Shown here piece by piece: positions 22,178-55,391 of a stretch of DNA of 64,000 nucleotides. Made by a program: the position numbers and the translations under genes. The DNA comes from an uncultured archaeon (GTDB lineage Archaea; Iainarchaeota; Iainarchaeia; Iainarchaeales; 1-14-0-10-31-34). Within the stretch, counting starts at the first letter, position 1; every line of letters starts with the position of its first letter. Below the pieces are notes generated by a model. It did no database searches. It had not been told where the DNA came from and saw nothing but the letters and a program-made list of their open reading frames with translations. The stretch covers positions 128,001-192,000 of the forward strand of contig CAZSOZ010000001.1 of NCBI GenBank assembly GCA_964608675.1. The letters are read 5' to 3'.

Positions 22178-22259
22178 TTCTGGCTTTTCTTAAAAAAAAA
22201 AAGAAAAAGCACAATTGCCAAAAAAAAAGGCATCAAAAAAAAAACAGAAGGTGTACTTA

Positions 22260-23567
22260 ATGGGAAAAACATACATAAACGTAGTTAAATACAACATTAA
22301 AGCAATCTTTGAAATACAAGGATTAGTAGACAAACACGACATAATAGGAGCAATCTTTGGACAAAGCGAAGGATTAATCGGAGAAGACCTTGACTTAAGA
22401 GAACTCCAAAAAAACGGAAAAATAGGAAGAATAGACATTTTTCCAGAACCAAAAGAAGGAAAAACAATCGGAACCGTTTTAGTTCCCTCTTCTTTGGACA
22501 TGGTTCAAACTTCAATTCTGGCAGCAGCAATTGAATCAATAGAAAAAGTAGGTCCATATGAATCAAAATTCAATGTAAAACAAATAGAAGACACAAGAAC
22601 AAACAAAAGAAACGAAATAAAAAACAGAGCAAAAGAATTACTGGGAAAATTCCTAAAAGACAGCACTGCTTCAAACGAAATAGCCGACGAAATAAGAGAA
22701 GCAACAAGAATTTCAGGAATAAAAAACTGGGGTCCAGAAGCACTTCCAGCAGGACCAGAAATAGAAAAAGAAGAAGAAATTATAATAGTAGAAGGAAGAG
22801 CAGACGTACTAAATTTGCTGAGAAACAACATAAAAAACGTAATTGGAATGAATGGTTCAAAAATACCTCACTCAATTATAGGATTATGCAACAGAAAAAA
22901 TACTACTTTGTTCACTGACGGAGACAGAGGAGGAGAATTAATTCAAAGACAATTAATGCAGACTGCAAAAATAGATTACGTTGCAAGAGCTCCGGACGGA
23001 AAAGAAGTAGAAGAACTTTCAAAAAAAGAAATAACAATGGCTTTAAGAAAAAAAATTTCTGCAGGAGACATTCAAAAAAAATACAGTCAAACATCTTTCA
23101 GGCCGAGAACAGAATTCACTCCAAGAGAAAGATTCCAAAGAATTTCACAAAGAAGCCCGCGACCAAACCAAAGAACTTATTCAAAACCATACAGACAAAC
23201 AGGAACTTATTCAAGACAAAGACCATTCCAGCAAAGAGAAAGCTACTTTAAAGAAAATCCTTCTCCAATTCTAACAGTTCCCCCAACACAAGAAGAAAAA
23301 ACAAGATTTGAAAAACACATGAAAACAGTAAAAGGAAAAATGGAAGCAGTAATTCTTGACTCACAAGGAAAAGAAATAAAAAAAACCAAAATAAGAGAAT
23401 TAATTCCAGCACTAAAAAAACAAAAAGAAATTGAATCAATAGTATTAGACGGAATAATCACAAAAAGGCTTTTAGACGAAGCAAAAAAACATTCAGCGAA
23501 ATACATAATAGGAATAAAAAAAGGAAAAATAGAAGAAACCCCAGAAATTAAAACACTGGTAATGTAA
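22260..23567 (+). CDS. dnaG: Archaeal DnaG (TOPRIM, exosome-associated)
   Basis: DIIGAIFGQSEGL, IVEGRADV, DGDRGG. Confidence 0.95.
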   Translation: MGKTYINVVKYNIKAIFEIQGLVDKHDIIGAIFGQSEGLIGEDLDLRELQKNGKIGRIDIFPEPKEGKTIGTVLVPSSLDMVQTSILAAAIESIEKVGPYESKFNVKQIEDTRTNKRNEIKNRAKELLGKFLKDSTASNEIADEIREATRISGIKNWGPEALPAGPEIEKEEEIIIVEGRADVLNLLRNNIKNVIGMNGSKIPHSIIGLCNRKNTTLFTDGDRGGELIQRQLMQTAKIDYVARAPDGKEVEELSKKEITMALRKKISAGDIQKKYSQTSFRPRTEFTPRERFQRISQRSPRPNQRTYSKPYRQTGTYSRQRPFQQRESYFKENPSPILTVPPTQEEKTRFEKHMKTVKGKMEAVILDSQGKEIKKTKIRELIPALKKQKEIESIVLDGIITKRLLDEAKKHSAKYIIGIKKGKIEETPEIKTLVM

Positions 23568-23655
23568 CTGCACAGTTCCGGCTGTGCAGTACGAGCAAGA
23601 CATAAAGCCGTACTAGCGCCACTTTATATGGCGCACGCATGCCAGCTGGGCGTGA
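23568..23655 (+). repeat. Dispersed GC-rich hairpin element, copy 1 (directly after dnaG stop)
   Basis: 54/63 nt identical to 44983-45045; TGCACAG-TTCCGG-CTGTGCA hairpin. Confidence 0.9.
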
Positions 23656-23660
23656 CAGCT

Positions 23661-23732
23661 GGGCCTGTGGTCTATTGGTATGACGCCACGCTTACAACGT
23701 GGAGACAGGCGGTCCGATTCCGCCCAGGCCCA
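23661..23732 (+). tRNA. tRNA-Val(TAC)
   Basis: GGGCCTG/CAGGCCC acceptor; CCACG-CTTACAA-CGTGG anticodon arm. Confidence 0.93.
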
Positions 23733-23801
23733 AAGCTTTTGCGAAACAATTAAATACAACTGATTCTTTTTTATTAACAGAAACATCAGGAGGTAATTAT
23801 T

Positions 23802-24065
23802 TTGGAAAACAAAAACAGAGCAATGCTTTTCTTTGGAGTAATGTTTTTTGTATTAATTTTAGTGACTTTTTATGGAGTAAACCAAGCAAACGGAGCAGCA
23901 ACAAAAGCACTTGAATTACAGCAAAAACAAATGAATACATCAAAACAATGTTCAAACAACTGTGATGCATTAGCAGAAGCAGGACAATTAAACTGTGAAT
24001 GGATTGAATGCCACGAAAGATGCCAAGTTGGAAAACCAGAACCATACTGCAAAGAATTAATATAG
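23802..24065 (+). CDS. Small membrane-anchored Cys-rich protein
   Basis: N-terminal TM and six Cys; AGGAGGT SD before TTG. Confidence 0.7.
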   Translation: MENKNRAMLFFGVMFFVLILVTFYGVNQANGAATKALELQQKQMNTSKQCSNNCDALAEAGQLNCEWIECHERCQVGKPEPYCKELI

Positions 24066-24277: not shown

Positions 24278-24433
24278 GCGACCGTGGTTTAGTGGTAGAA
24301 TAGGAGCTTGCCAAAAACCTTTTTTAGAAAAAAAGCTTTACCAAAAAAGGTTTTCACTTCGTGAAAACTTATTTTTTAATTAGTAAAGGTTTGTTATTAG
24401 CTTCGGACTCGGGTTCAATTCCCGGCGGTCGCA
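24278..24433 (+). tRNA. tRNA-Gly(GCC) with 85-nt intron at 37/38 (24314-24398)
   Basis: GCGACCG/CGGTCGC acceptor; GGAGC-TTGCCA|intron|A-GCTTC; BHB-like junction. Confidence 0.92.
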
Positions 24434-24653
24434 TTACGCGGTTTCAGCCGCGTGAAACAATGCAGGGCTTTCAGCACAGCTTATCGCGCTTCCATGTAAC
24501 GAAAAACAATCAATCCCCTGCTCTGCAACAAGCTATAAGTTTGTAAAAAGATTTAATAATTTTTTACTGCAAGAATATTTTAGTTAAACTGTTTATGGCA
24601 GCAGGATTGAACAAAGTGAAGTCGTGCACGTGTGTAAACTGCACGAATAGTTT

Positions 24654-24724
24654 GCGTCCATAGTCTAGTGGTATGACGCGAGCCTTCCAAGCTCGATGTC
24701 CGGGTTCGATTCCCGGTGGGCGCA
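24654..24724 (+). tRNA. tRNA-Gly(TCC)
   Basis: CGAGC-CTTCCAA-GCTCG anticodon arm; GTTCGATTC T-loop. Confidence 0.95.
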
Positions 24725-24758
24725 CTTTTTATTTTCTTTTTAATCTAATTTTAATGAA

Positions 24759-43976: not shown

Positions 43977-44981
43977 ATGGCGGAAAAAAAAAACAAAACT
44001 ACAATTACAGCTGATTCTGAAAGCGAAATAAGCAAACCAGAAAAAAAAATTAAAAATATTTCTGACTTGCCTGGAGTAGGAACAACTTCTGCTGAAAAAT
44101 TAATTGCTGCAGGATATAAAAGCATGGAAAGCATTGCTGTTGCTTCTCCAGCAGAATTAATGGAAGCCGCAGGCTTAGGAGAAATTACTGCAACAAAAGC
44201 AATTAATGCTGCCCGAGAGTCTTTAGAAATGGGTTATGAATCAGCAGACAAAATTCAAGAAAGAAGAAAAAGCATTGGAAGAATTACAACAGGTTCAAAA
44301 GAAGTTGACGAATTAATTGGAGGCGGAATCGAAACCCAAAGCATTACAGAAGTATACGGACAATATGCTGCAGGAAAAACTCAATGGTGCTTTCAGCTTG
44401 CTGTAACAACTCAACTGCCTGAAGAACAAGGCGGATTAGAAGGAAATGTTTTGTATATTGATTCAGAAAATTCTTTCAGACCTGAAAGAATTATAGGAAT
44501 AGCAAAAAAATTTGGATTAAATGAAGAAGAAGTACTAAAAAACATTTTTGTTGCAAGAGCATTTAATTCAGACCACCAAATGGTTTTATCAGAAAAAGCT
44601 GAAAGCATGATAAAAGAAAAAAACATAAAATTAGTAATAGTGGATTCCTTAACCTCGCAATTTCGAGCAGAATTTATTGGAAGAGGAACATTAGCAGGAA
44701 GACAACAGAAATTAAACAAACACATGCATACTTTAATGAAATTAGCTGAAATGAACAATATTGCCTTATTAGTAACAAACCAAGTTATGTCCCGCCCAGA
44801 CATATTGTTTGGAGACCCAACTGCTCCAATCGGAGGACACGTAGTAGGACATGCAAGCAAAACAAGAATTTATTTAAGAAAAGCAAAAGGAGAAAAAAGA
44901 GTTGCAAAACTAGTTGACAGCCCTTCACTGCCGGACGGAGAAGCAGTTTACAGGGTAACAGAAAACGGATTAGAAGACTGA
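43977..44981 (+). CDS. radA: DNA recombinase RadA
   Basis: HhH N-domain, [32 protein letters not shown]. Confidence 0.97.
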
Positions 44982-45070
44982 ATGCACAGTTCCGGCTGTG
45001 CAGCACATGCCACACATGAAGCCGTTTTAGCGCCACTTTATGTGGTACTCAAGCGCCAACCGACTGAATG
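44982..45070 (+). repeat. Dispersed GC-rich hairpin element, copy 2 (directly after radA stop)
   Basis: Homologous to 23568-23631; GACTGAATG direct repeat at 44976 and 45062. Confidence 0.9.
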
Positions 45071-45104
45071 TTTGTTTACTGTGAATTAAAAAAAATTTAA
45101 CTAG

Positions 45105-45673
45105 TTAATGTCTTTTTATTAACTTCTGAAAAACTCTTTTTAATTTGAGCCTGCTTGTTTTTTTGGCTTTGGATTTGCTTCTGTTCTGCATTATTTTTCT
45201 TCTAGTTTTTTGAATCATTTCATCTAAAGAATATCTTGCTGAATTAATTTTTCTTTTTTTAAGCTGTTTTCTTCTTTCAGAAGAAATGCTAATAAAAGAA
45301 GACAAATGAAACATTTCTTTTGCAGAAGGAAACCTTGTTTTTAATTCTTTTAATACAATTAATTCAAGCCATGAAGCAATCCCTTTTTTTGCAAAAATTT
45401 TTTGGTTTCCTTTTTTTCCTATAGGGGAATAATCCCCCATCCAATTGAATTCTGAAATACTTCAAAAGAAATGTATCCTATTTTTCGACCTAAATTTGTG
45501 CCGTTTGTTTCCCTGAATTTTTTTATTGCATCCCTTATTTCGCGGGAAGAAATAAAATTTTTTGATGGAATCCCTTTATCAATATAAAATGATGCAATAA
45601 ATAATCCTGTTTTTTGCTTGGAAGAAAAATTTGGAGAATAATTTATTTTTATTCCAAAAACTTTTTTTGCCAT
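45105..45673 (-). pseudogene. Probable single GNAT-like basic orphan split by a frameshift (ORFs 45419-45673 and 45105-45440)
   Basis: ORFs overlap at a G5 run; one extra G joins them; FAKKGIASWL resembles GNAT motif A. Confidence 0.45.
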
Positions 45674-54856: not shown

Positions 54857-54943
54857 TATTAATGATTTTTCAAGCGCCCTTTTTTTTCCTGTTTTATTCA
54901 GGTTTTTTTTAATGTTTTTAAAAGTTTGCGTTTATAATTTGTA

Positions 54944-55217
54944 TGCGGGCTAGGCTGGAGAGACAGCAGTTCTTTGTAACCTGAAATCTGCTTCAGCAGG
55001 AGCCGAAGCTCTGGGGAAGGATTTAATTTAAGAACAAGAATCTTTAACTGATTCAATGAACTTCTGCCCCCTAAGATTGAGCTTTAAAGTCAACCCGTCA
55101 GATTCGGAAGAAAGCAGCGGAAATTTTAGTGTTCAATGCTTTTGGGATCACGGAAGCAAGAACAATTAAAGGCTAATTCTTTTTCTTGAATTGATTCGAC
55201 TCCAGAGTGCGCCCGCA
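54944..55217 (+). ncRNA. ffs: Archaeal SRP (7S) RNA
   Basis: TGCGGGC/GCCCGCA terminal helix; Alu TGTAAC motif; helix 8 CCGTCAG-ATTC-GGAA-GAA-AGCAGCGG. Confidence 0.9.
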
Positions 55218-55391
55218 CTTTTGATTTTAATTCTAAAAAAATTCGGAAAACAACTTGTTTTTTGTTTTGGTTATTTTTGTCTTTTTTTTAGAAAAATGAT
55301 TGAAAAACTGAAGGGAAAGGAATTTAAAGGAGAAATGAGAAATCCATACAATTAATGATTATTTTAAACTTAAAAAGGAGGGAAAAAATAA

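Follow-up and report, generated by a model that had tools for sequence, protein, structure and literature searches.

A GC-rich element follows the stop codons of dnaG and radA in a 64,000-nucleotide stretch of DNA from an uncultured archaeon of the order Iainarchaeales (assembly GCA_964608675.1, contig CAZSOZ010000001.1, positions 128,001 to 192,000; the whole stretch is called the window here, and coordinates are counted from its first letter). We find that the element is probably a non-coding repeat of ~93 nt, built of four hairpins, which persists in sequence that is discarded or harmless. Copies would persist in the leaders, trailers and introns of precursor tRNAs (pre-tRNAs) and in the few bases after the stop codons of a tightly packed genome. 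The anchoring to stop codons would be a by-product, because spacers are very short and because, for some modules, a target duplication would rebuild the end of the gene, so that the insert lands right behind an intact stop.

We compared the genome from which the window comes (G000; 1.2 Mb, 53 contigs, 32 % GC) with five others of its genus (G001-G005, completing a set of six) and with further genomes of the family, G006 and G008 among them. Orthologues were searched in a family set of nine genomes, dnaG being found in all nine and radA in eight.

The element is built of four hairpins with covarying stems

At dnaG the whole spacer between the stop codon and tRNA-Val(UAC) is the element, which forms an island of 51-58 % GC within AT-rich sequence. 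The junction reads TAA-C-TGCACAG at 23565-23575. The features of this site are listed below; the hairpins (hp1 to hp4) come from the minimum free energy (MFE) fold and from covariation.

22215..23567, plus strand: dnaG-like open reading frame (ORF) of 450 aa, from the ORF list; its TAA stop at 23565-23567 lies 1-2 nt before the element
23570..23587, plus strand: hp1, stem of 6-7 bp GCACAG/CUGUGC, loop UUCCGG
23588..23614, plus strand: hp2, stem GUACG../..CGUAC, AUAAA loop region
23616..23634, plus strand: hp3, stem GCGCCA/UGGCGC, loop CUUUAUA, after an invariant UAGC junction
23642..23662, plus strand: hp4, stem CCAGCUG/CAGCUGG, loop GGCGUGA
23660..23733, plus strand: tRNA-Val(UAC), directly abutting the element (ARAGORN; Rfam tRNA model, 64.7 bits at 23661-23732)

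The 3' arm of hp4 ends on the first base or bases of the tRNA. The dnaG copy folds at -40.9 kcal/mol (z -3.2), better than 200 of 200 shuffles, and its opposite strand likewise gives four hairpins, at -40.6 kcal/mol (z -2.5). The 7-bp hairpin TGCACAG/CTGTGCA, noticed in the original prediction, is present in both the dnaG and the radA copy and in the MFE fold.

Seventeen long copies from six genomes were aligned over 95 columns (alignment A1), which is the basis of the covariation counts and of the covariation test. The element consists of hp1, hp2, the UAGC junction, hp3, a linker and hp4, in this order, and the junction is unchanged in all 17 copies. Conserved sequence is found in the linkers and in the loops, whose consensus is UUYCGN in hp1, AUAAA in hp2, UUUAY in hp3 and NCGRAA or GCGUGA in hp4; the stems vary yet stay complementary. 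Over the 17 copies 91.2 % of 441 cells are paired, hp1 reaching 100 %, and both partners have changed in 21 of 26 pairs (hp1 6/6, hp2 5/7, hp3 5/7, hp4 5/6). None of 500 shuffles scored as high for covariation, and when the partners are shifted by 1-3 columns only 20-40 % of the cells pair.

Two mutually exclusive pairings had been proposed for the middle of the element, together with a switch in the 3' untranslated region (3'-UTR). The complementarity of AUAAAG with CUUUAU does exist. Its pairs do not covary, 0 of 8 changing on both sides as against 5 of 7 in each of the competing stems hp2 and hp3, and three A1 copies have an hp2 loop (UUUCA or UGAAA) that is no longer complementary to the hp3 loop. 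We therefore do not retain the switch. As had been suspected, the element matches no Rfam family: Rfam 15 gives no match at gathering score in the window besides tRNAs and the signal recognition particle (SRP) RNA, and permissive Rfam scans of the dnaG and radA copies returned noise only (E 0.9 or higher). A split-tRNA leader, an H/ACA and a C/D small RNA were considered from the sequence and dropped. The archaeal SRP RNA itself, at 54943-55218 (129 bits), is ordinary.

On the opposite strand the loops and linkers follow nearly the same pattern, so that either orientation gives four hairpins and a covariance model of the element (R1) scores both strands. It gives 78.1 and 45.2 bits for the two strands of the dnaG copy, and 92.1/83.3 and 91.7/88.6 bits for two copies on contig C5. 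G.U pairs are rare (~7 of 441 cells), loops and linkers are arranged with pseudo-dyad symmetry about a CTAG centre that does not vary, and the ends of the element are not reverse complements of each other. This symmetry and the scarcity of G.U pairs would suit a role at the level of DNA, as a cruciform or as a two-fold symmetric site for a dimeric protein acting in recombination, replication or chromosome organisation. Such a role seems to us very doubtful: the stems vary but stay complementary, which points to pairing within a strand and not to sequence-specific binding of the duplex, and no candidate protein was identified.

The element does not behave as a readthrough signal

The original prediction raised the possibility that a readthrough or recoding signal gives DnaG and RadA a C-terminal tag in common. 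The observations behind it are sound. The same element begins 1 nt after both stops, 54 of 63 nt being identical between the two copies (blastn within G000: 63 aligned nt, 9 mismatches, 85.7 %, E 7e-15), and both copies are free of stops in the frame of the upstream gene, dnaG over the full 150 nt that were translated and radA over 35 codons. It is only by running through tRNA-Val that the dnaG frame of G000 stays open; in the orthologues the next in-frame stop follows after 2 (G001), 16 (G002), 30 (G003), 6 (G004) and 12 (G005) codons. Nor is there an excess of synonymous changes, since 12 differences in 66 aligned nt fall 4/4/4 by codon position. The tag would not be common to RadA either: among the six family genomes with a readable radA tail only G000 has the element behind radA, and the other five lack it.

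Known readthrough structures lie ~8 nt past the stop, whereas at 1-2 nt hp1 would be inside the ribosome footprint. Furthermore, other copies of the element lie in tRNA introns, leaders and trailers, and both strands score. The element resembles readthrough signals in having a stable structure just 3' of a stop, but it has no conserved extension, no fitting spacing and no coding signature. Together these results contradict a signal that tags DnaG and RadA, to which we assign practically no chance. An archaeal selenocysteine insertion sequence (SECIS) was likewise dropped, as the radA stop is TGA in G000 but TAA in G005.

The dnaG copy is old and the radA copy recent

tRNA-Val(UAC) directly follows dnaG in all six genomes of the genus. 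In four of them (G000, G003, G004, G005) hp1 lies 1-2 nt past the dnaG stop, with a different and still complementary stem in G004; in G001 and G002 the spacer holds other hairpins. DnaG is 70-78 % identical among these genomes. Judged by its retention in four of six genomes at this distance, the dnaG copy is old, and would be either selected or homogenised. It has blastn matches in each of the five other genus genomes, several in each. Once transcribed, it most likely forms the 5' leader of pre-tRNA-Val, which RNase P would cut off; the RNA of RNase P is present in G000 (101.3 bits).

The radA site has a different history. Its junction reads TGA-A-TGCACAG at 44979-44989, and its features are the following.

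43977..44981, plus strand: radA ORF of 334 aa, from the ORF list; TGA stop at 44979-44981
44983..45048, plus strand: radA copy, partial and degraded; hp1 (44983-45002) and hp3 (45032-45046) kept, hp2 disrupted, hp4 missing
44976..44984, plus strand: left copy of a 9-nt direct repeat, GACTGAATG, spanning the radA stop; read from the sequence, a possible target duplication
45062..45070, plus strand: right copy of the same repeat, GACTGAATG; read from the sequence, equally only possible as a target duplication

The fold of the radA copy has a z of -1.3, with 22 of 200 shuffles folding as well, and R1 gives it 61.5 bits on the plus strand and 22 bits on the minus strand. No tRNA follows it. Among 16 aligned copies its nearest relative is the dnaG copy of the same genome (83 % over columns 1-66). 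Since it is found behind radA in G000 only among the readable tails and has the dnaG copy as its nearest relative, the radA copy is, by sequence comparison, a recent, local, partial and decaying duplicate of a dnaG-type copy.

Metagenome contigs with near-identical radA ends were also compared. One has no insert and one has AT-rich hairpins; two contigs carry, behind radA, an AT-rich hairpin with a solo hp2-type unit, and two others carry two GC-rich modules and, after them, 27 nt that repeat the end of radA, stop included. Among the contigs of four DNA runs from one study, none covering 44400-45600 of the window has a joint that skips the radA element, a result uninformative on the empty site; one contig from these runs ends inside the element. 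A look for sequencing runs that cover 22900-23900 of the window found these four DNA runs and none of RNA.

The radA gene of the window is uninterrupted. In G002, G003 and G006 the RadA matches are split and lie within open frames of 866-1372 aa, which suggests that inteins are inserted in the RadA of these relatives.

Half of the examined copies lie in or near tRNA genes

In G000, R1 gives 28 strand-matches at E<=1, including six distinct loci at E<=1e-4, and all six genomes of the genus have strand-matches (12-42 per genome). Across the order, matches occur in 24 of 101 sampled genomes, and in 15 of the 46 of good quality.

For a census of positions, 164 nhmmer strand-hits were merged to 92 places and 88 distinct sequences, of which 17 spanning fewer than 56 model positions were dropped, leaving 71 copies. 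About 1.3 kb was taken around the better matches, and each was classified by its neighbouring tRNAs and gene ends. The census is weighted towards the top of the BLAST and R1 lists, from which its ~78 loci were chosen, and leaves out 90 further R1 matches and most matches outside the genus. The 71 copies are distributed as follows.

Inside a predicted tRNA intron: 8 of 71
Abutting a tRNA 5' end: 10 of 71
Abutting a tRNA 3' end: 10 of 71
Within 60 nt of a tRNA: 7 of 71
Abutting a stop codon (-2..+5 nt): 8 of 71
6-60 nt from a gene 3' end: 11 of 71
Other position: 17 of 71

Thirty-five copies are thus inside a tRNA gene or no more than 60 nt away from one. As tRNA genes with 60-nt margins cover, by our estimate, <1 % of the genome, this is a strong association, and tRNA genes and their neighbourhood are the main home of the family. 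Of the two long copies on contig C5, one is the leader of a tRNA-Glu and one lies inside a tRNA-Tyr intron. Only two of the 71 copies are overlapped by an ORF of at least 120 aa. Since one of these copies directly adjoins the 5' end of a tRNA and the other is 26 nt away from the 3' end of a tRNA, both ORFs are probably spurious. The proposal of a family of palindromes similar to REP (repetitive extragenic palindromic) sequences or to Rickettsia palindromic elements (RPEs) was right in that the element is multi-copy and constrained in structure. Targeting of stop codons, which the proposal included, is too narrow a description, with 8 of 71 copies at stops and 35 tied to tRNAs.

The 35 copies away from tRNAs are flanked by 37 gene 3' ends against 20 5' ends, and by eight convergent against two divergent gene pairs. 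All eight copies that abut genes do so at the stop codon, none at the start. With its strand-symmetric pattern, the element might be expected from these numbers to act as a bidirectional terminator or as a stabiliser of mRNA 3' ends, the symmetry serving both directions. We consider this improbable. Half of the copies lie at tRNAs or inside introns, and most genes have no element, there being ~6 strong loci in G000. Archaeal termination uses T-runs, and no T-runs follow the hairpins of the dnaG and radA copies.

Two looser searches were set aside. A scan of the genome collection with a core of 16 specified bases returned more than 118 stretches, mostly chance matches in bacteria; its archaeal matches were in metagenome-assembled genomes of Iainarchaeum, Diapherotrites and Micrarchaeota. 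Clustering of GC islands was dominated by cross-matches between tRNAs and was not used for counts. Thirty-one small contigs of G000 (among C10, C16 and C18-C52) have 43-68 % GC, against 32 % in the bulk of the genome, hold the only reverse transcriptase matches and look like contamination of the bin.

tRNA leaders, trailers and introns contain shared modules

Parts of the element recur next to other tRNAs. Positions 69-93 of the dnaG copy match four other sites in G000 by blastn, and its 3' third matches sequence immediately upstream of other tRNA genes. The segment 23635-23662 is common to short leader elements, one of which lies in the window.

24598..24653, plus strand: short sister element (K-loop-like hairpin, linker, hp4-type hairpin); nhmmer, 42.7 bits; aligned in A2, the alignment of this element

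This short element abuts tRNA-Gly(UCC) at 24654-24725, and its linker and last hairpin are the part shared with the dnaG copy. In A2, both partners have changed in 10 of its 12 pairs. Within a 4-bp stem that covaries lies a mini-hairpin of 2 bp with a conserved UGA...GAA on its two sides, a motif whose A residues never vary. On inspection this motif may be a K-loop; no canonical C box was seen in the element. When 100 nt upstream of the tRNAs were compared, ~10 of the 48 that ARAGORN calls in G000 had a related leader of 55-60 nt, and an nhmmer profile of these leaders found further copies in tRNA introns and trailers. Hairpins of at least 6 bp end within 6 nt of the 5' end in 19 of 45 tRNAs of G000 and of the 3' end in 15 of 45, compared to 16.5 % of 3000 random sites.

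Introns hold the same units, in either orientation. The eight intron-borne copies of the census lie in ARAGORN-predicted introns of 76-180 nt (the dnaG and radA copies are outside introns), and several of these introns, at 83-103 nt, are barely longer than one element of 93 nt. tRNA-Asn(GUU) is intronless in G001 and G002 and interrupted at the same position by different modules in three genus genomes, G000, G003 and G005, whose introns of ~46-114 nt differ in content: AT-rich hairpin units in G003 and in one copy of G005, a mixed intron of 114 nt in G000, and, in the second tRNA-Asn(GUU) of G005, an intron of 94 nt with three hairpins of the family (hp4-type, hp2, hp3) and a 26-nt tail. These differences among close relatives indicate that introns at one position are gained and rebuilt, as judged from sequence, from the same stock of modules that is found outside tRNAs.

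A function of these modules in RNA would account for part of this. The modules could be repeated because they are useful in pre-tRNAs and at mRNA 3' ends, protecting against exonucleases or positioning RNase P, tRNase Z or the splicing endonuclease, and the short sister element might bind L7Ae through its K-loop-like UGA...GAA. Several observations fit: the copy between dnaG and tRNA-Val in four of six congeners, with stems as different as GCACAG/CUGUGC and CAACUG/CAGUUG that are each complementary; the 20 of 71 copies that end within -3..+5 nt of the mature tRNA; the enrichment of hairpins at the tRNA ends of G000 over random sites; and the covariation of the short element with its invariant A residues. 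Against it, 26 of 45 tRNAs have no 5' hairpin, so that the hairpin is not required. Both orientations occur inside introns, orthologous sites hold different modules or none, and the rarity of G.U pairs is more in keeping with pairing on both strands than with an RNA read from a single strand. A functional role of this kind is compatible with persistence in discarded or harmless sequence; we hold it to be rather unlikely.

Other features of these tRNA genes were seen in passing. In G000, 20 tRNA genes that look genuine have introns predicted by ARAGORN, of 28-180 nt; this number excludes two dubious calls, at C1:118525 (AT-rich) and on the high-GC contig C39. One of these genes, tRNA-Gly(GCC) at 24278-24433 of the window, has an intron of 85 nt. 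Many introns begin with an AT-rich hairpin unit, AACTTTT...AAAAGTT, followed by (G/T)TATCAAAAA; this unit is a second repeat family, found also upstream of tRNAs. Many tRNA trailers of G000 (for example C2:5525-5640, C2:7779-7880, C6:13002-13100, C14:971-1050) contain GC-rich hairpins and then a K-loop-type hairpin, which reads correctly only on the strand opposite the tRNA, so that leader and trailer modules face the tRNA as inverted repeats. At C2:13940-14146 ARAGORN calls a tRNA-Pyl(CUA) with a 129-nt intron. The call includes an extra 5' base; counted from the G after it, the anticodon is UCU, and the gene is, from its sequence, probably the otherwise missing tRNA-Arg(UCU) and not an amber suppressor.

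Sister modules insert behind genes with target duplication

Hairpin modules lie directly behind protein genes at C1:94656-94806 (locus L169) and C4:30659-30775 (L168, L170) of G000. At these two genes the modules are flanked by perfect duplicates, of 43 and 27 bp, of the last codons and the stop of the gene. The orthologues of the 27-nt case all lack the insert (5 of 5). In the 43-nt case two orthologues have no insert, and three have other modules, behind which the end of the gene recurs as a shorter, diverged duplicate. The perfect duplicates and the orthologues without insert indicate that insertion with target duplication of variable length operates in this system, a conclusion drawn from sequence for the sister modules, namely the short element (K-loop-like hairpin and hp4) and a two-hairpin type. 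A third long duplication in G000, of 25 bp at C3:109450/109570, is a repeat inside a Cys-rich coding gene and was discarded as an insertion.

A stronger proposal is that the modules are an undescribed kind of archaeal mobile DNA which builds and remodels tRNA introns, inserts independently of a transposase while duplicating 9-43 bp of its target, thereby restoring the last codons and the stop of a gene, folds alike from either strand and is harmless in any orientation. We rate this proposal as speculative and rather unlikely. Searches for a mobilising enzyme gave the following. The Y1 (RAYT-type; REP-associated tyrosine) transposase, PF01797, was not found in G000, G001, G002, G003 or G005, genomes that are 81-96 % complete; G004, G006 and G008 have it, and of these G006 and G008 are family genomes without R1 matches. 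The TnpB zinc-ribbon domain was not found in G000. Reverse transcriptase gave matches in G000 on just two small contigs, whose GC contents of 49 % and 58 % make them look foreign in a genome of 32 % GC. No parent insertion sequence was found.

Several points weigh against the reading of a repeat that persists in discarded or harmless sequence. Duplications next to the 71 four-hairpin copies do not exceed chance, the longest words common to both flanks being 5-13 nt, so that this mode of insertion is shown for the sister modules only. The 9-nt repeat at radA is not significant, as flanking repeats of at least 9 nt occur at 27 % of 1000 random sites, and its origin as a target duplication is a possibility. 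Searches with Y1, TnpB and reverse transcriptase profiles found no partner transposase and no credible reverse transcriptase with the elements. Twenty of 71 copies abut tRNA ends exactly, and the dnaG copy has stayed at its site between species with a DnaG identity of only 70-74 %; selection for a function would explain both facts no less well than passive survival. Finally, the intron and anticodon calls of ARAGORN, on which the census draws, are imperfect, and 17 of the 71 copies have no assigned context. Taking both sides into account, we still regard a non-coding repeat that persists in discarded or harmless sequence as the likely explanation.

Relation to known repeats and mobile introns

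The element resembles REP sequences and bacterial interspersed mosaic elements (BIMEs) in being short, GC-rich, imperfectly palindromic, extragenic and multi-copy, in lying behind genes and between convergent genes, and in keeping its stems by complementary changes. Those repeats are bacterial and consist of a single palindrome, whereas the element is archaeal, has four hairpins with pseudo-dyad symmetry and lies in half of its copies at or inside tRNA genes. REP and BIME sequences have the RAYT transposase, while five of the six element-bearing genomes of the genus gave no Y1 match. Miniature inverted-repeat transposable elements (MITEs) and Correia elements are likewise non-autonomous and structured, ~100 bp long, near genes and associated with target duplication. 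Unlike them, the element has no terminal inverted repeats at the sequence level and no duplication of fixed length, the sister modules duplicating 27 and 43 bp (possibly 9). RPEs are also a palindromic repeat family and are known for in-frame insertion inside ORFs; in contrast, the two long ORFs that overlap element copies are probably spurious.

Mobile or 'transposed' archaeal tRNA introns were reportedly described by Fujishima et al. in 2010. Such introns share with our element an intron content related to sequence elsewhere, and gain and loss between close relatives. In our case, by contrast, the shared unit is one defined hairpin repeat, and copies of it also occur outside tRNAs, behind protein genes as well as in leaders and trailers, in either orientation. 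Mobile or 'transposed' introns are also the subject of Sugahara et al. 2012 (PMC3293823), and intron gain has been tied to mobile DNA in Thermoproteales and Caldiarchaeum (PMC4390854; PMC3293823). The Caldiarchaeum case concerns a 1.8-kb element bearing a recombinase; none is involved here. A 2026 preprint calls the route by which archaeal tRNA introns arrive open (10.64898/2026.10.13.758758). The literature on hairpin repeats of DPANN archaea, on Iainarchaeum and on tRNA introns of Diapherotrites, in its openly available part and outside subscription journals, yielded no description of the repeat among the papers listed.

Significance

Our analysis removes a false lead, that of a readthrough tag shared by two proteins of DNA metabolism, and defines in its place a structured repeat family of DPANN archaea, with support from covariation and with a working covariance model. 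Annotation pipelines would otherwise miss such a repeat, or miscall it as extensions of ORFs or as small RNAs. In some genomes whole tRNA introns consist of these units, whereas in others the orthologous tRNA has no intron, and the units also lie behind protein genes. Their presence both in introns and behind genes, there with target duplications, links the gain of introns to an insertional repeat. If the modules are mobile DNA, they would offer a concrete way in which archaeal tRNA introns arrive, and the element may show how such introns are built.

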